From contig NC_009954.1 in the NCBI RefSeq assembly GCF_000018305.1, forward strand, positions 1,110,001 through 1,142,000: DNA of 32,000 bases, in the 5' to 3' direction. This document shows positions 318 to 14,863 of the stretch, in pieces. The position numbers and the translations under genes are program-made. The notes beneath the pieces were generated by a model. The model ran no database searches, was not told the DNA's origin, and worked only from the letters and a program-made list of their open reading frames with translations. The DNA comes from Caldivirga maquilingensis IC-167 (lineage in GTDB: Archaea; Thermoproteota; Thermoprotei; Thermoproteales; Thermocladiaceae). Position 1 is the stretch's first letter; the number at the start of each line of letters is the position of its first letter.

Positions 318-435
318 AGAGCCGATACTAGGTGTAATCGTATGGATGACGTAAGGTTCTCCTCACTTTATCCCCAGGCTATAATCATTTACAAGTAGAC
401 ATGTTTGCTACTGAATAATCCCTCTTCCTCATGCG
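318..435. repeat. Left copy of a perfect 118-bp direct repeat flanking the MTase/BrxL-like cassette
   Basis: agagccgatactaggtgtaatcg...ccctcttcctcatgcg is identical base for base to 6030-6147. The flanks diverge immediately outside (g436 vs a6148; c317 vs t6029). Stop codons occur in all six frames. It has no tRNA-like features. Confidence 0.95.
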
Positions 436-504
436 GTAGTATCAAGATAACAGTATCCTTTAGGGTGCTGGCGCCAGGGTCTCGATATAATCAGGGTTAA
501 CGAC

Positions 505-609
505 ATGACTAAGTACCCTTACTATGGCTATGAAGGTGATTTCAAGCTTAAAGGATGTAGAGCTCAGATTCTATGCTGTGAAATTTCTGGAGTATCCGAG
601 ATGCTGTGA
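505..609 (+). pseudogene. Decayed, truncated paralog of the small zinc-ribbon gene at 6457..6657
   Basis: It translates as MTKYPYYGYEGDFKLKGCRAQILCCEISGVSEML*, against MVKCPYCGYEGNFRLIKQW...ECPKCHGV in the intact copy. Hand alignment gives 38/51 nt identical over the first 17 codons. Both N-terminal Cys ligands are replaced by Tyr (TGT>TAC, TGT>TAT). There is an internal deletion and an early stop. Confidence 0.6.
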
Positions 610-686
610 AGTCATTAAATTATTACCAGAAGGATAAGGGTTAAGTTTATATTAAATTTCCTTAAAATTAAAATAGTGTCTCAGAT

Positions 687-3600
687 ATGGCTGCTCAACC
701 TCAAATAAGCATTGATGATGTTTTAAACTGTTTTCTACAAGGCATTAGGGAGGCTAATAATGAGGAAGAGTTGAGGATCAGGATATCCAGGTGCATAGAG
801 GATATGATCCTCGAGCCACTCGGCATAACACAGTACGGTGGTCGCTATGAGTACACCCTAGTCTCTGGGGCTAGGGTGGATGCCCTCTACGGACACGTAA
901 TCATAGAATATAAAGCCCCAGGCAGACTCTCAACAAACACCGACATAACCAAGGCCAAGGACCAAGTCATAAACTACATTAAAACCGAGGCCGCCTCAAA
1001 AGCTGAGTGGGATAGGTATCTGGGTATTATAATCAGTGATAGAATAGCCTTCGTGAGGTACTACAAACCGCAGGATACCTGGATCCTAAGGGGCCCGTAT
1101 AACATTACCAGGGAGAGCATTATAAAGATTATTGAGGCCCTGAGGGGGCTAAGGAGGAAGGCGCTCAGTGTGGATAACCTCTTGAGGGACTTCGGCTCCC
1201 AGTCGGAACTTGCTGGGAGAGTTATTAGGGCGTTGTACAGGAGGCTCATTGAGACTGGGAACCCGAGGACTAGGGTGTTGTTTGAGGATTGGATGAGGCT
1301 CTTCAGACAAGCAACAGGTTATAGGCCTGAGGAGCTTGAGGAATTACCCACGTTGGCTCAGGAGTACGGGTTAGCCGATAATGTGAACTTCGATGCATTA
1401 ATATTCGCAATACAAACATACTACGCCTTCATACTAAAGCTCCTCGCCGCGGAGGTTGTTTACCTATACGGCGGTGGTAGGTTTTACATATCCTACATAG
1501 CCGATCTCGATGACGCATACACAAGGGGCAGTGTCAACGCCCTAAGGGATGAGCTTAGGGAGTTGGAAAGCGGTGGCATTTTTAGGCACTTCGGCTATGA
1601 GAATTTCCTAGAGGGTGATTACTTCTCCTGGTACCTGGAGGAGCTTGATGGGGAGCTTGCTGGGGCGCTGGCTGAGGTGATCAGGAGACTCTCGGACTAC
1701 GAGCCGGCAACGCCTCAATTAGAGCCCGAGTACGCTAGGGACCTACTCAAGAGACTTTACCAGGAATTAATGCCCCGCGACATAAGGCATAATCTTGGCG
1801 AGTACTACACGCCTGACTGGCTCGCTGACTTCCTACTCGATGAGGTGGGGCTTAGCCTAGGGAACCTCATGGAGATGGGTAAGGAGGACTCACTGAAGCC
1901 ACTGCAGCAACTGAGGGTTCTGGACCCGGCATGTGGCTCGGGCACCTTCCTAGTGAGGTACATAGCGAGGCTTAGGGCTTATGCCAGGGAGTACTTCCTG
2001 GAGGATGTACTCGTGGACTACGTACTACAGAACGTGGTTGGCTATGACCTAAACCCACTGGCGGTACTCACCGCCAGAACAAACTACCTACTCATGATTG
2101 CGGACTTGCCAAAGAAGGGAACAATAGAGATACCGATTTACATGGCTGACTCATTGATGGTTGAGAGGAGATCCACACTAATGGGTGATGTTTATGCGCT
2201 GAGGACAACGGCTGGGGAGTTCAGGATACCGGCAAACATCATCGAGAAGAACCTACTGCCGGATATACTCCACGAGGTGACTGACGCATTGAGGAACAGG
2301 TACAAGCCGGAGGAGTTCAAAGCAAGACTACAGTACAGATTCAAGGAGTTGGGAGAAAACGAGCTCAGCGTCCTGTTGGATTTCTACAGCACACTCCTAA
2401 AGCTGGAGGAGGAGGGTAAGGACGATGTGTGGGTATCCATAATAAGGAACGCCTTCGCACCAATACTGAGGGGCAAGTTCGACTACATTGTGGGTAACCC
2501 ACCATGGGTTAATTGGGAAAACCTGCCGGAGGACTTCAGGGAGTTGTCCAATGACTTGTGGCAGCACTATGGGCTGGCCGAGATTAGGGGGAAGATGGGG
2601 TTGGGTAAGGTTAAGAGGGACTTGGCGATGCTCTTCATGGCCAGGTGCTTCGACCTATACCTAAAACCCGGCGGTAAGCACGCATTCCTAATGCCATTCA
2701 CAGTATTCAAGACACAGGCTGGTTCAGGGTTCAGGAGGTTCCTAGCCACAAAAACCAGGGTGCACGTTGTACATGACATGGTAACTCTGTACCCATTCGA
2801 GGGGGCCGTGAACAGGGTCTCGGCAATAGTTGTTGAGAAACCCGAGACGGGCAACGCTACGGGGAACAAGGGTGGGGTTAGGCACATCATATGGGTTAAC
2901 AGAACAGGGAAGCCCATACCCACCGATGCGCACTTAGAGGATGTCCTCAAAGTTACGGAGAGGTTCGAGGCCATAATGGCACCCGTAGTGGAGAGGGACC
3001 CGTCAAGCCCCTGGATGCAGGTAACAAGTAAAGTACTACCCTACATTAGGAAGATAACCTCCGGGACCTCACCATACGAGGCACATGCAGGCGTTTATAC
3101 AGCTCTAAACCAGGTATACTTCATACAGATCAAGCAGAGACTCCCAGACGGTAAGCTACTAATCATCAACCCGCCGGAGCCTGGGCAGAAGAAGAGGGTT
3201 AAGCAGGTCGAGGTGACTATAGAGCCTGACCTGGTCTACCCGCTCATTAGGGGTAGGGACGTCAAGAGGTGGTACGTAGACTACAAGGAGAGGTATATCA
3301 TTCTTCCTACAGATGAGCAGGGAAATATGATTAAGCATTATGAAATGAAGATAAAGTACCCCAATACGTATAGATACTTCTATGAGTTCTTCAGGGATCT
3401 AGTGAATAGGGGTGGTGAGCCCTACAAAAGTAAGTTAGAACCTTATAGGAGGTTACCACTTGAGGTGGCGGAAAAAAGCGCACCGCCGTTTTACTGGGTG
3501 TTCAACGTAGAGCCTAGCCTAGTTCCCTACAAGGTAGTGTGGAGTAGAATTGCCGGGGGCATTAGTGGTAAGGCTGTTAGTTTTTCATGTGCTGTAGTAG

Positions 3601-4382
3601 AACCCATAGAGATAAAGGATCTAGGTAAAAAGCCTGTGATACCTGATGATGGAACTATACTAATAGATCTCAAAGATCCGAAGGAGGCCTACTATATTGC
3701 TGGCGTCCTTAATTCAATTATCGTAAGGACAACAATAGCAGCATATACATACGAGTTGAGACAGGAAACGCATATAGTCGATTTTATAAGAATTCCTCGT
3801 TATGATCCTAATAATGAATTGCATGGGAGGATTTCCGAGCTCTCCAGGAGGGCTCACGAGATTGCCAGGTGTATCCACGCCAGTGCCAAGCCCGAGTACT
3901 GTGGGTTCATTAGGGACCCCGAGGGTGGGCTCAGGAAGATTGAGGATGAGCTTGATAGGGCCGTGGCTCAGCTCTACGGCATACCCGAAGATGCCCTGGA
4001 GGAGTTCAGGAAGTTACTGGGTGTGTTGTCTGGCGAGAGCGTTCCAGAAGAGGAAGAGAGTGTTGTGGGGGTTGTTAGGCCCTCGGTGGAGTTTCTCAAG
4101 GTCAATGTTGTTGCTGGGCAGACTGATTACCTGGAGGTTAATATTGTGACTGCGGGGCTTTGTGATAAGGCCGTACTCATTCTTAAGTGGCCCTGGGGCA
4201 CGCAGACGCTGAACCTTGATGATGGTAGGCATAGGATTGAGGTTAAGGTCCCTGAGGGGGTTTATGAGGTTGCGTATAGTTTTAAGTGCTCTGGTTATGA
4301 GTATGATGGTAGTGTTAAGGTAACGGCATCCTCCAAGGTGCCGGAGGGGCCTAGGAGGTCCAGGACTCTTAGACTTGGGTGA
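687..4382 (+). CDS. Single-chain type IIG/IIL-like restriction-modification enzyme (PglX/MmeI-like): N-terminal PD-ExK nuclease motif, gamma-class N6-adenine DNA methyltransferase, TaqI-like specificity domain, extra C-terminal beta-rich domain
   Basis: The ORF is 1231 aa. A nuclease-like motif D65-X8-E74-Y-K76 (RVDALYGHVIIEYKAPG, nt 879-914) is present. The MTase motifs are EYYTPDW (motif X), LDPACGSGTFL (motif I, nt ~1920-1952) and VGNPPW (motif IV, NPPW at nt 2496-2507). AYYIAGVLNS is typical of the Eco57I/TaqI C-terminal specificity domain. An acidic linker (SGESVPEEEES) precedes a ~105-aa beta-strand-patterned tail. Confidence 0.85.
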   Translation: MAAQPQISIDDVLNCFLQGIREANNEEELRIRISRCIEDMILEPLGITQYGGRYEYTLVSGARVDALYGHVIIEYKAPGRLSTNTDITKAKDQVINYIKTEAASKAEWDRYLGIIISDRIAFVRYYKPQDTWILRGPYNITRESIIKIIEALRGLRRKALSVDNLLRDFGSQSELAGRVIRALYRRLIETGNPRTRVLFEDWMRLFRQATGYRPEELEELPTLAQEYGLADNVNFDALIFAIQTYYAFILKLLAAEVVYLYGGGRFYISYIADLDDAYTRGSVNALRDELRELESGGIFRHFGYENFLEGDYFSWYLEELDGELAGALAEVIRRLSDYEPATPQLEPEYARDLLKRLYQELMPRDIRHNLGEYYTPDWLADFLLDEVGLSLGNLMEMGKEDSLKPLQQLRVLDPACGSGTFLVRYIARLRAYAREYFLEDVLVDYVLQNVVGYDLNPLAVLTARTNYLLMIADLPKKGTIEIPIYMADSLMVERRSTLMGDVYALRTTAGEFRIPANIIEKNLLPDILHEVTDALRNRYKPEEFKARLQYRFKELGENELSVLLDFYSTLLKLEEEGKDDVWVSIIRNAFAPILRGKFDYIVGNPPWVNWENLPEDFRELSNDLWQHYGLAEIRGKMGLGKVKRDLAMLFMARCFDLYLKPGGKHAFLMPFTVFKTQAGSGFRRFLATKTRVHVVHDMVTLYPFEGAVNRVSAIVVEKPETGNATGNKGGVRHIIWVNRTGKPIPTDAHLEDVLKVTERFEAIMAPVVERDPSSPWMQVTSKVLPYIRKITSGTSPYEAHAGVYTALNQVYFIQIKQRLPDGKLLIINPPEPGQKKRVKQVEVTIEPDLVYPLIRGRDVKRWYVDYKERYIILPTDEQGNMIKHYEMKIKYPNTYRYFYEFFRDLVNRGGEPYKSKLEPYRRLPLEVAEKSAPPFYWVFNVEPSLVPYKVVWSRIAGGISGKAVSFSCAVVEPIEIKDLGKKPVIPDDGTILIDLKDPKEAYYIAGVLNSIIVRTTIAAYTYELRQETHIVDFIRIPRYDPNNELHGRISELSRRAHEIARCIHASAKPEYCGFIRDPEGGLRKIEDELDRAVAQLYGIPEDALEEFRKLLGVLSGESVPEEEESVVGVVRPSVEFLKVNVVAGQTDYLEVNIVTAGLCDKAVLILKWPWGTQTLNLDDGRHRIEVKVPEGVYEVAYSFKCSGYEYDGSVKVTASSKVPEGPRRSRTLRLG

Positions 4383-5821
4383 TGGTTATGGGTGATCTTT
4401 ATGTTAAGATTAGGAGGGCTTTTGGGGATTATGCTGTGGATAAAAGCCTACTTCATGAGACGGAGATATCTAGGTTGCCGGGTTTTGTTGCTGAGTATCT
4501 CATAACGGAGTTTGCGATGGAGTATCCCAATGATTGGCAGACGAGGCTTAGGGAGTTCATTACACAGCATTATTTTGAGACCAGTGAAAAGGAGTACCTT
4601 AAGCATAGGCTTATTGAGGAGAGGCGCATTAAGATTATAGATGAGTTAAGGGTTTGGGTGGATTTGGAGAGTGGTGAACATAGGGGTGTAATTCAATCCA
4701 TTGGTGAGAGCGACATAAGAGTCCCACCGGATATAGCCAGTAATTATCCCATGACCATGATTACAGGGATGTGGGGTCTCATTGAGCTTGAATACTCACC
4801 TGAAACCGCTAAGAGGGATATTAACGGAGAGCTTATAGAAAATCCAGTCATTGTGACTGATTTCACACCATTCCAGGCACCCACCTCGGATCCCAAGATA
4901 CTTGCTGAGGCCCGAGGTTACTTTACCTTTGAGGAGTGGCTTGATGTTCTCATAAACACCATTGGTTATAATCACAATGCTTACCCGGGTATTAGGAGGA
5001 AGCTTGTCCTCCTCTCAAGGCTCTTACCGCTGGTGGAGGAGAATTTGCACATTGTAGAGTTTGGGCCTAAGGCCACTGGTAAGACTTACGTGTTTAGGAA
5101 TGTGAGTAGGTATACGAGGATTATCGTGGGTGGTATGATAAGCCCAGCAGCCTTGTTCTACAACCTCAGGAATGGTATGCCGGGCGAGATAGCCATTAGG
5201 GATTCTGTGGTATTCGATGAGATATCCAAGGTCAGATTCCCCAACCCTGATGAGATAGTTGCTAAACTCAAGGACTTCATGGAGAGTAGTCAGTATGAGA
5301 GGGGTAAGCAGAGAGTTGCATCTGGTTCTTCTATAGTTATGCTTGGGAATGTAGAGGTTGAGGAGAGGGAGGGGGCTTACGTGCCCGTGGAGGACTTAAC
5401 ATACATACTGCCAAAGCCCATGAGGGACTCAGCCCTAATAGATAGGGTTAGAGGGCTTATACCAGGATGGGAACTCCCTAAAATAGGTATGGTTAAATAT
5501 CATTTGTCCCAAGGTTATGGGATTGCTCTAGATTACTTCTCAGAAGCATTACATACAATGAGGAAGGAGACCTTAGTAGGTGAAGTTAGTAAGCATATAG
5601 AGTTAATGGGAGAGGTGACGATTAGAGATGAGAAGGCGATTAAGAAAATGCTAAGTGCATTCATTAAACTCCTCTTCCCAAACCTAGAATTTGATAAAAG
5701 AGAGTTGGATATAGTCACTGGGCATGTAGTAGAACTAAGACAGAGAATCAGAGATTGGATGCATAAGTTGTCTCCCTCAGAATTTCAAAGAGAGGAATTA
5801 TCATATATTGTGAAAGGATAA
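4379..5821 (+). CDS. BrxL-family AAA+ ATPase (BREX BrxL-like N-terminal and ATPase domains) lacking the Lon-protease-like C-terminal domain
   Basis: The ORF is 480 aa. Its start overlaps the upstream stop (GTGATG; GTG 4379 or ATG 4382 against TGA 4380-4382), implying translational coupling. Walker A is EFGPKATGKT (nt 5063-5086) and Walker B is VVFDEI (DE at nt 5216-5221). The stretch GGMISPAALFYN...KDFMESSQYERGK...SSIVMLGN...DSALIDRVRGLIPGWELPKI...GYGIALDYFSEAL follows the BrxL ATPase (Lon_2-type) pattern as I remember it. The protein ends about 80 aa later, whereas full-length BrxL is about 680 aa. Confidence 0.75.
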   Translation: MMVMGDLYVKIRRAFGDYAVDKSLLHETEISRLPGFVAEYLITEFAMEYPNDWQTRLREFITQHYFETSEKEYLKHRLIEERRIKIIDELRVWVDLESGEHRGVIQSIGESDIRVPPDIASNYPMTMITGMWGLIELEYSPETAKRDINGELIENPVIVTDFTPFQAPTSDPKILAEARGYFTFEEWLDVLINTIGYNHNAYPGIRRKLVLLSRLLPLVEENLHIVEFGPKATGKTYVFRNVSRYTRIIVGGMISPAALFYNLRNGMPGEIAIRDSVVFDEISKVRFPNPDEIVAKLKDFMESSQYERGKQRVASGSSIVMLGNVEVEEREGAYVPVEDLTYILPKPMRDSALIDRVRGLIPGWELPKIGMVKYHLSQGYGIALDYFSEALHTMRKETLVGEVSKHIELMGEVTIRDEKAIKKMLSAFIKLLFPNLEFDKRELDIVTGHVVELRQRIRDWMHKLSPSEFQREELSYIVKG

Positions 5822-6029
5822 AAACTACATGAGAAAGGCCTCAAGGACAACCCTAATGAGGGAGTTGTAAGAATGGCTCCTATTACTTTAAACCAGGTGA
5901 GGTAGGGTGCAAGCCCGTATTCTTTAGTTCCTCAATGTTTTCTCCACTGATTTAGGTAATTGAGGAGTGGCTTAGTTATTGAATCATTATTACTTGATTC
6001 ATTTAGACTGGGGTGTCAGTCCAAGTCTT

Positions 6030-6147
6030 AGAGCCGATACTAGGTGTAATCGTATGGATGACGTAAGGTTCTCCTCACTTTATCCCCAGGCTATAATCAT
6101 TTACAAGTAGACATGTTTGCTACTGAATAATCCCTCTTCCTCATGCG
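6030..6147. repeat. Right copy of the perfect 118-bp direct repeat
   Basis: It is identical to 318-435. The repeat period is 5712 bp, and 5594 bp (436-6029) lie between the two copies. Confidence 0.95.
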
Positions 6148-6456
6148 ACCCCTTCTCCTCACATATATTGATTTTCACGGATACCTCAGTGCCCTATCTT
6201 GTAGGCTCTCTAGCTCTCTTAATCCTCATCTCCATCATCTCCTAGGCATAGTTCCACAACTATTCAACGTGCAGCTTTAGTTCCCTCAAGCTTACCCTAT
6301 TTTCATCTTAATCTCTATGATGAGCTGATGTACATTATTGATATCTGTAATAACTATGTCAGGCACCTTTTCCTAGACTATGCCACTGGACTCCTTCAGA
6401 TACTGCTTAAGTTTCTCTAAAAAGACTATAAACACGGTTTCTCTACTCAAGCAACA

Positions 6457-6657
6457 TCACCTACTCTTAGGTTTCACCCTTATTACGAATTCCGAGACTT
6501 TGTTGGATTGAGTATTTACACCATAGTAATGGTTGAATACTCCATGACATTTTGGGCACTCAAGCTCCTTAACAATGTAGAACCTGAACCTCCACTGCTT
6601 TATAAGCCTGAAATTACCTTCATAACCACAGTACGGACACTTAACCATACTTCCCAC
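6457..6657 (-). CDS. Small zinc-ribbon protein (two CxxC pairs)
   Basis: The 66-aa product contains CPYC...CPKC (MGSMVKCPYCGYEGNFRLIKQWRFRFYIVKELECPKCHGVF...). The true start may be M4 (6648), because that is where the decayed paralog at 505 aligns. Specific family unknown. Confidence 0.6.
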   Translation of the reverse strand: MGSMVKCPYCGYEGNFRLIKQWRFRFYIVKELECPKCHGVFNHYYGVNTQSNKVSEFVIRVKPKSR

Positions 6658-11314: not shown

Positions 11315-14138
<2,824 letters not shown>

Positions 14139-14179: not shown

Positions 14180-14863
14180 TCACTTAATAGGCAGGTTAAG
14201 TACATCTCCAGGCTTCATCACGTAAACCCTCACGTGGGGGGCTAGGGACTCGGTTAGGTTCCTGAATTCCTCAGGATCCTGCCTAATCTGGGGGAAGGTG
14301 TTGTAGTGCATTGGCACCACAGCCCTGGGGTTTATTAGGGATACTGCGTAGGCCGCTTCCCGTGGACTCATTGTGAAGTAACCGCCTATGGGTAGTAGGG
14401 CCACGTCAGGCTTATATAATCTGCCTATCAACTCCATGTCACTGAATAAACCCGTGTCACCGGCGTGATAAATAACGGCCTCAGGGGACTTAATTACGAA
14501 GCCTACTGGTGAACCATGGGTTGAGCTGTGTAGTGCTGGAGTCATGTAAACCTCTATCTCGTTAGTTAATTTAACGGGTCCACCAATGTTCATACCTATG
14601 GTGTTCTTAACCCCCTCCTTCTCGGCTAGGTAAACGGCTAGCTCGAATATTGATACAACCGTGGCGTTAGTCTTATTGGCTATTTGAACCGCCTCACCCA
14701 AGTGATCTGAGTGATCATGGGTCACCAGTATGAAGTCTACCTTACTTAACTCACCTAGGGTTACTGGGGAATTGGGGTTTGATATCCATGGGTCAATAAG
14801 TATTCTCTTACCCATTAATTCCACTTCAAAGGCCGCATGCCCAAGCCACTTCAAGTAACCCAT
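14180..14863 (-). CDS. UPF0173-family metal-dependent hydrolase (metallo-beta-lactamase fold)
   Basis: The 227-aa product has the N-terminus LKWLGHAAFEVEL..ILIDPW and the metal motif THDHSDH. Confidence 0.8.
   Translation of the reverse strand: MGYLKWLGHAAFEVELMGKRILIDPWISNPNSPVTLGELSKVDFILVTHDHSDHLGEAVQIANKTNATVVSIFELAVYLAEKEGVKNTIGMNIGGPVKLTNEIEVYMTPALHSSTHGSPVGFVIKSPEAVIYHAGDTGLFSDMELIGRLYKPDVALLPIGGYFTMSPREAAYAVSLINPRAVVPMHYNTFPQIRQDPEEFRNLTESLAPHVRVYVMKPGDVLNLPIK

Follow-up and report, generated by a model that had tools for sequence, protein, structure and literature searches.

Two overlapping genes in Caldivirga maquilingensis IC-167 raise the question of whether a restriction-methyltransferase and a BrxL ATPase, the latter from a family of the bacteriophage exclusion (BREX) systems, can form a defense unit of their own. 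The genes fill positions 687-5821 of the window, i.e. the whole 32,000-nucleotide (nt) stretch that was analyzed (NC_009954.1, positions 1,110,001 to 1,142,000), as two plus-strand open reading frames (ORFs): gene 1 (687-4382, 1231 amino acids (aa), ATG start) and gene 2 (4379-5821, 480 aa, GTG start). Both products are 100% identical to annotated C. maquilingensis proteins. We found that this pair recurs across archaeal phyla and that its enzyme carries an extra C-terminal domain, or tail. Since this tail occurs only where BrxL adjoins, the enzyme and BrxL very probably work together as an ATP-dependent anti-virus system, as judged from sequence comparison. We favor, at slightly better than even chances, the reading that the pair is a self-contained, mobile, two-component, ATP-dependent restriction-modification (RM) system, in which the tail would be an adaptor that recruits the BrxL ring to DNA.

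The two genes are coupled through their stop and start codons. At the junction (cttggGTGATGgtt), which has GTGATG at the stop/start, the TGA stop of gene 1 (4380-4382) overlaps the GTG at 4379 by 4 nt and the ATG at 4382 by 1 nt; NCBI places the BrxL start at a third possible codon, ATG 4388 (477 aa). Hence, the translational coupling described in the initial annotation of this DNA, with both ORFs on the plus strand, is present.

Gene 1 (687-4382, plus strand) encodes, by its profile matches, a full-length single-chain type IIG/IIL restriction-methyltransferase. The PADLOC model REase_MTase_IIG (PDLC03630) matched at 1284.7 bits, with residues 18-1116 on model positions 17-1100 of 1100, and the Pfam matches were Eco57I, N6_Mtase and MmeI_Mtase. 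In the methyltransferase core (1923-2507, plus strand), motif I (DPACGSGTF, residue 413, 1923-1949) precedes motif IV (NPPW, residue 604, 2496-2507), which is the motif order of gamma-class N6-adenine methyltransferases, and both motifs were kept in 82 of 82 homologues examined. When the family profile was compared with the Protein Data Bank (PDB), the methyltransferase core alone matched PglX (8c45, 3.5e-9), BrxX (9ewz, 7.7e-6) and MmeI (5hr4, 2e-3); among solved structures, the core is by this comparison nearest to PglX/BrxX, then to MmeI. The protein had been described as a PglX/MmeI-like gamma-class methyltransferase with a D-X8-E-X-K motif, and of this the motifs and the likeness of the core stood and membership in PglX did not: the NCBIfam PglX/BrxX models gave 48.6 bits (cut-off 400) and 30.1 bits (cut-off 500), as local matches to the methyltransferase core. 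Hence, the gene 1 protein is not PglX. Residues ~705-1116 (2799-4034, plus strand), which the PADLOC type IIG model also covers, form a putative target-recognition and C-terminal core region with a weak TaqI_C match (E 0.0095) and sparse conservation.

The N-terminal alpha/beta domain (residues ~1-160; 687-1166, plus strand) has a putative PD-(D/E)XK site made of E26, D65 (879-881), E74 (906-908) and K76 (912-914). D-x8-E-x-K occurs once in the protein, as D65...E74-Y-K76 (DALYGHVIIEYK); by itself the bare pattern is not significant, since shuffled proteins had it 0.29 times on average and 25% of them had it at least once. E26, D65 and E74 were invariant in 25 homologues of 24-78% identity, the mean column identity of the domain being 39%, and the E-D-E-K set was retained in 35 of 38 BrxL-linked enzymes. 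An AlphaFold2 (AF2) model of residues 1-330 (predicted local distance difference test (pLDDT) score 81) has an a-a-b-b-a-b-b-b-a domain and then a helical connector, in agreement with the layout of MmeI. The conserved catalytic signature and the predicted alpha/beta topology are what point to a putative nuclease of the MmeI type.

Gene 2 (4379-5821, plus strand; other starts ATG 4382 and ATG 4388) belongs to the BrxL family, as had been proposed. Its protein scored 491 bits with TIGR02688 (cut-off 329), matched Pfam BrxL_N (PF20442) over residues 14-139 (2e-28, 99.3 bits) and BrxL_ATPase (PF13337) over residues 158-474 (3e-111, 371.8 bits), and aligned to residues 32-471 of the Acinetobacter BrxL structure 8EMC (E 1e-58). 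PADLOC likewise labeled both members of the pair, gene 1 as REase_MTase_IIG (1285 bits) and gene 2 with BrxL models at up to 325 bits. The Pfam scan of the gene 2 protein returned only BrxL_N and BrxL_ATPase, with no AAA_5/McrB signal. The C-terminal Lon-like domain was not found (TIGR02653, 270.5 bits, cut-off 628), and the protein stops at its AAA+ domain. The AAA+ motifs are Walker A, GPKATGKT (5063-5086, residues 229-236), and Walker B, VVFDE (5207-5221, residues 277-281), both on the plus strand; G229, P230, T233, G234, K235, D280 and E281 were invariant in 14 homologues, and Walker B aligned with the VAFDE segment of 8EMC, presumably the Walker B of the E280Q mutant. On these matches, gene 2 encodes a short, Lon-less BrxL consisting of BrxL_N and an MCM-like AAA+ domain. 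BrxL is an ATP-dependent, MCM-like ring that encircles double-stranded DNA (dsDNA), two such rings being held tail to tail by their C-terminal Lon-like domains (PMC10164562); the form that lacks this extension has been assigned to type-4 BREX in a 2026 BREX survey (PMC12839542). In viral contigs, no BrxL relatives were found.

The pair is not peculiar to Caldivirga. Directly 5' of BrxL, a ~1230-aa enzyme was found in Sulfolobus tengchongensis, Pyrobaculum and Saccharolobus shibatae B12, mostly with a 4-nt overlap, and these loci have no PglZ or BrxC within 10 kb. When short BrxLs were scanned with one genome per species (59 loci), the enzyme lay upstream of BrxL in 24. The archaeal hosts of the pair are Thermoproteota, Bathyarchaeia, Caldarchaeum/Nitrososphaerota, Methanodesulfokora, ANME-1, Alkanophaga, Thermoplasmata, Aenigmatarchaeota and Nitrosotalea, and outside the archaea it occurs in Thermotogaceae and one unclassified bacterium. 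The two genes are thus conserved as neighbors across several archaeal phyla and the Thermotogaceae, and in 29 of 37 loci they overlap or are no more than 11 nt apart. Clustering of the neighboring ORFs gave no family, beyond the enzyme and BrxL, that is common to the pair loci. The initial annotation had also held that no standard BREX locus surrounds the pair, and we found neither PglZ nor BrxC in the 26 kb of the window downstream, nor linked to the pair in those homologous loci that have long flanks, where 6-10 kb can be seen to either side; upstream, the window gives a view of 686 nt before gene 1. On family membership, conserved adjacency and absence of a surrounding BREX locus, the three points that computation could have refuted, the proposal of the initial annotation held up.

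Some of these loci have features of their own (L numbers denote loci). Unrelated defense-type genes stand between the enzyme and BrxL as an Argonaute with Piwi and PAZ (L054, 335-2461), an SMC-like ATPase (L030, 6902-9403), a DUF6084 protein (L012, 8696-9283), and a DNA methyltransferase with a STAND/BrxC-like ATPase and a PIN protein (L020, 5776-9912). In Pyrobaculum, BrxL is identical in L002-L004, and the enzyme is intact in L004 and in P. oguniense (L016) and split in L002 (1008 + 197 aa) and L003 (166 + 1051 aa), which may reflect inactivation or assembly error. The stretch just upstream in these Pyrobaculum loci encodes an EVE-domain protein and a divergent Eco57I/TaqI_C methyltransferase of 466 aa. 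A Nitrososphaerota metagenome-assembled genome (MAG; L013) has eight tandem copies of a 42-nt unit (5726-6187) directly 5' of the enzyme gene.

The enzyme and BrxL have also diverged together: across 29 loci their pairwise distances were correlated (Mantel r = 0.81, 0 of 2000 permutations), and in the BrxL tree the RM-linked BrxLs formed essentially one clade, apart from the short BrxLs linked to PglZ. Outside the RM clade, short BrxLs occur in true BREX with a nuclease-less methyltransferase, a BrxB-like protein, BrxC and PglZ (e.g. L023), in a classical type-4 BREX on a Thermomicrobium plasmid, and with DUF499/HmaC-like ATPases or 400-580-aa proteins that lack a family match. On the Thermus oshimai plasmid pTHEOS01 (L150), a short BrxL stands in an operon-like row with a vWA protein, a tubulin-like protein, a 3'-5' exonuclease and a 1716-aa RecQ-family helicase. 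Since it is found with BREX, DUF499, vWA/tubulin-like/RecQ and other partners, the short BrxL is a reusable motor module, and its pairing with the type IIG enzyme is one stable, ancient use. In three of these settings, short BrxL is followed by a conserved protein of 544 aa (L033, 11384-13018), ~580 aa (L050, 6112-7857) or 403 aa (L046, 11395-12606; then a HEPN/nucleotidyltransferase pair), none with a Pfam or PADLOC family match; these arrangements may be further undescribed BrxL-based two-gene modules.

The PADLOC type IIG model ends at residue 1116 of the enzyme, and the remainder is the tail, which at residues 1117-1231 (~115 aa; 4035-4379, plus strand) consists of an acidic linker, an Ig/PKD-like beta-sandwich (~4083-4331) and the basic peptide GPRRSRTLRLG (4332-4379). 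AF2 predicted the linker and the basic end as disordered and the sandwich as eight strands (pLDDT 81-91), for which Foldseek returned PKD, FN3 and Ig-like domains (PKD domain 4xed, E 3e-4); Pfam gave no match on the tail. This architecture is common to 36 tails despite fast sequence divergence. With the 115-aa tail as query, a phmmer search of 1.84 billion representatives was uninformative, its matches being confined to pieces of these same enzymes and to unrelated Ig-repeat proteins; a local hidden Markov model of the tail found none in the partners of other short BrxLs. The beta-sandwich is a common protein-interaction fold, which we count in favor of the tail as an adaptor.

The tail and BrxL occur together, with two apparent exceptions. 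We scanned 85 loci (L065-L149), made up of 80 metagenome loci of the enzyme and five from contig look-ups (L065-L069), and found the tail in 24, with BrxL in 24 of the 24. Wherever the enzyme matched past profile position ~1200, BrxL was downstream, and where it ended at ~1112-1129, there was no BrxL anywhere in the locus. After de-duplication and pooling with the genome loci, 35 loci had tail and BrxL, 38 had neither, none had the tail only and two had BrxL only (Fisher's exact test, 2e-19). Among the loci counted, loss of BrxL alone with the tail left behind was never seen. The two cases of BrxL only have a frameshifted tail (Vulcanisaeta) and a truncated tail (ANME-1 MAG). The locus of Vulcanisaeta thermophila (L065, 6001-15375) is a decayed pair: its tail is frameshifted into 67- and 73-aa ORFs, and its BrxL is reduced to an 88-aa N-terminal fragment and a remote ATPase fragment, with ~5.3 kb of metabolic genes between them. 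Enzymes with neither tail nor BrxL that are 54-62% identical to the window protein fall among tail-bearing enzymes whose identity to it goes as low as 39-47%. Hence, the tie between tail and BrxL is not a simple clade effect. On a neighbor-joining tree of the enzyme core, Fitch parsimony gave about 10 coupled changes of tail and BrxL, both tree and count being rough. The tail is a newly observed feature and a candidate interface that appears and vanishes together with BrxL.

The pair also moves as a unit. In the window it lies between two direct repeats of 121 nt without strand, left at 315-435 (exact part 318-435) and right at 6027-6147, which are 99% identical, 5712 nt apart and the boundaries of the cassette. 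No further non-overlapping ORF of at least 60 aa was found between them, in line with the earlier view that the pair holds the only intact genes inside the repeats. In a Caldarchaeum MAG (L009), the pair alone is bounded by 66-nt direct repeats (6016-6081 and 11492-11557, 5476 nt apart and 95% identical), with a leuA-like gene on one side and top6B on the other; the repeat is a duplicate of the top6B 3' end, and no integrase is present at the locus. In Caldivirga and Caldarchaeum alike, the repeat-bounded pair sits among housekeeping genes. In S. shibatae B12 (L005), the pair is within a 10.9-kb element between repeated tRNA 3' ends (3401-3443 and 14285-14327). Hence, from the direct repeats in Caldivirga and Caldarchaeum and the tRNA element in S. 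shibatae, the pair is a horizontally mobile unit of just two genes. The S. shibatae element also carries integrase fragments and a plasmid gene of the pRN family. Run SRR253096 yielded a 5742-nt Logan contig that coincides exactly with window positions 406-6147; it takes in the last 30 nt of the left repeat and stops where the right repeat stops (length 5712 + 30), which may stem from the effect of the repeat on the assembly graph or hint at an excised, circular form.

In the mechanism that we propose, the enzyme would recognize a specific DNA site, protect the host by N6-adenine methylation and cut with its N-terminal PD-(D/E)XK-type nuclease. With the enzyme on an unmethylated site, the tail would dock BrxL or load it on the DNA, and would so stand in for the origin recognition complex (ORC)-like BrxC/BrxB, in the role supposed for these in BREX. 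The ATP-driven ring would then make good what is missing from a type IIL enzyme: it could provide long-range communication or translocation between sites, upon which two enzymes would complete a double-strand cut as in type III/ISP systems; alternatively, it could unwind DNA locally or block replication of the invader. BrxL would be needed for restriction and not for methylation, as is the case in type-1 BREX (PMC10164562; PMC12707154).

An unlikely alternative is exclusion in the manner of BREX, where the enzyme would mark self and sense unmethylated sites, and the tail-recruited BrxL would be the effector that clamps invader DNA and blocks its replication, the nuclease being secondary or vestigial. 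BrxL has been proposed to disrupt phage replication initiation (PMC10164562), the same short-BrxL family works in true BREX beside a nuclease-less methyltransferase (L023), and the enzyme core is nearest to PglX/BrxX. However, E26/D65/E74/K76 are maintained in the great majority of BrxL-linked enzymes, which argues that the nuclease is used, and the pair has no ORC-like loader.

The distal end of the tail allows another reading, which we consider improbable: BrxL would be a regulator or remodeler and not a DNA motor, taking hold of the basic peptide at the C-terminus so as to unfold the enzyme, take it apart or gate it, and in this way controlling the restriction of self DNA that has been replicated or damaged (restriction alleviation). 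Threading of terminal peptides is common among AAA+ rings, a disordered, basic peptide that contains Leu closes the tail past a flexible acidic linker, and tail-less enzymes survive without BrxL. However, MCM helicases are the closest structural relatives of BrxL, which encircles dsDNA and not a polypeptide (PMC10164562), and the short BrxL has no protease-like domain.

It is more improbable still that an autonomous type IIG enzyme and a BrxL that acts alone or with unlinked partners merely share an island or mobile element. Defense genes do cluster, short BrxL is found in many contexts (type-4 BREX, DUF499 systems and other partners), and cargo genes can separate it from the enzyme; we reject chance co-location on the stop/start overlap, the perfect tail-BrxL association, the co-divergence, the monophyletic clade of RM-linked BrxLs, and the pair standing alone between repeats in two distant genomes. 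Decay of a BREX locus that lost PglZ, BrxA, BrxB and BrxC is barely credible and was also rejected, in spite of the NCBI label of the gene 2 protein as a BREX component and the PglX-like methyltransferase, as the two-gene unit is intact across phyla, the enzyme has a tail and a putative nuclease domain that PglX lacks, its PglX scores are far under the cut-offs, and the visible flanks of the pair hold no BREX remnants.

Several observations weigh against the two-component, ATP-dependent RM system that we prefer. The N-terminal domain found nothing under E 0.2 in a Foldseek search of the PDB, its isolated 170 aa with the connector matched no Pfam family at E up to 10, and an N-terminal-only profile returned just spurious coiled-coil matches from the PDB. 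Since close relatives with neither tail nor BrxL persist, the core enzyme can evidently stand by itself, without BrxL as an essential partner. BrxL is dispensable in Salmonella BREX, hence its role may be modulatory. In 8 of 37 loci the enzyme and BrxL are separated by other genes, and single deletions that span the 3' end of gene 1 and gene 2 could explain part of the joint losses.

The remaining features of the window concern the insertion site and its surroundings. The cassette has a G+C content of 0.47-0.52 vs 0.40-0.45 in the flanks. Inside it, beside the left repeat, is a decayed Zn-ribbon gene fragment (510-573, plus strand), which copies, in inverted orientation, part of the intact 66-aa Zn-ribbon gene outside the right repeat (6457-6657, minus strand); blastn aligned 510-573 with 6643-6578 at 77% over 66 nt, and the translations are KYPYYGYEGDFKL vs KCPYCGYEGNFRL. 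This inverted remnant is a mark of rearrangement at the insertion site. A TATA-like AT-rich element (TTTATATTAAA, 646-656, plus strand), 31-41 nt 5' of the ATG, is a candidate archaeal promoter, as inferred from its sequence. The 26 kb downstream hold housekeeping genes, among them pyruvate:ferredoxin oxidoreductase (POR), SufB, Mre11/Rad50 and transporters, and scans of the window for tRNA and Rfam gave no matches.

We found no description of a BrxL-type IIG pairing in the literature, where earlier mentions in subscription journals or REBASE are possible, and the 2026 BREX survey, which is anchored on BrxC, PglZ and DUF499, does not mention the pair (PMC12839542). The component families are known, but no earlier description seems to exist of their combination, of how widely it is spread or of the tail specific to BrxL. 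Taken together, we give even chances to the broader view that these pairs are a distinct, widespread class of ATP-dependent RM systems, mainly archaeal and often from thermophiles, in which the Ig-like tail of a type IIL enzyme recruits BrxL without BrxC, BrxB or PglZ. If so, the pair would be the simplest natural setting for learning what BrxL does with a PglX-like protein. The six proteins of BREX make its biochemistry hard; here there are two, a recognition-modification enzyme with a putative nuclease and a BrxL ring, and signaling from methyltransferase to ring can be tested directly on a pair of thermostable proteins. The classification of RM systems would also gain a branch coupled to an AAA+ ring, many archaeal 'BREX system BrxL' annotations in genomes without BREX would be accounted for, and archaeal virology would have a new common defense module.

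Compared with known systems, gene 1 resembles MmeI-type (type IIL/IIG) enzymes: one chain runs from an N-terminal D-x8-E-x-K signature through a helical connector and a gamma-class methyltransferase (NPPW) to a specificity region at the C-terminus, there is no separate methyltransferase gene, and the PADLOC type IIG model matches at full length. Unlike MmeI (919 aa), the protein is ~300 aa longer, its N-terminal domain has no detectable similarity to the Pfam MmeI domains, of which the methyltransferase alone matches, and it has an Ig-like tail and an obligately linked AAA+ partner, whereas MmeI-type enzymes need no nucleoside triphosphate (NTP).

The likeness to type III and type ISP systems (LlaGI, LlaBIII) is one of proposed logic only: a presumably asymmetric site, a motor that would link distant sites and a nuclease that would fire on encounter. 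Their motors are superfamily 2 helicase-like and are fused or in a Res subunit, whereas the motor of the pair is a separate AAA+ ring of the MCM/BrxL clade, so that this is analogy and no homology. A restriction nuclease that depends on a separate NTP-hydrolyzing partner is also found in McrBC and LlaJI, with an AAA+ ring and a nuclease, and in CglI/NgoAVII, with an ATPase H subunit; LlaJI couples NTP-dependent restriction to a specific site protected by methylation. McrB is of a different AAA+ clade and uses GTP, its nuclease is McrC, and no McrC-like gene is among the cassette ORFs; the comparison with McrBC is thus by analogy, not homology.

With BREX types 1 and 4, the pair shares a bona fide BrxL, in the Lon-less form of type-4 BREX (PMC12839542), and a methyltransferase core near PglX/BrxX; translocation-based sensing of orientation, which the comparison with type III/ISP systems takes up, has already been suggested for BREX (PMC12707154). 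Unlike BREX, the pair lacks PglZ, BrxC, BrxA and BrxB, which define these systems, and its methyltransferase protein keeps a putative nuclease domain and fails all NCBIfam PglX models. The pair is not BREX, and its enzyme is not PglX. That it is an evolutionary intermediate in the origin of BREX, as the initial annotation suggested, remains speculation; the BrxL tree gives no direction. The RM-BrxL class may be a relative of BREX, as its ancestor or its derivative.

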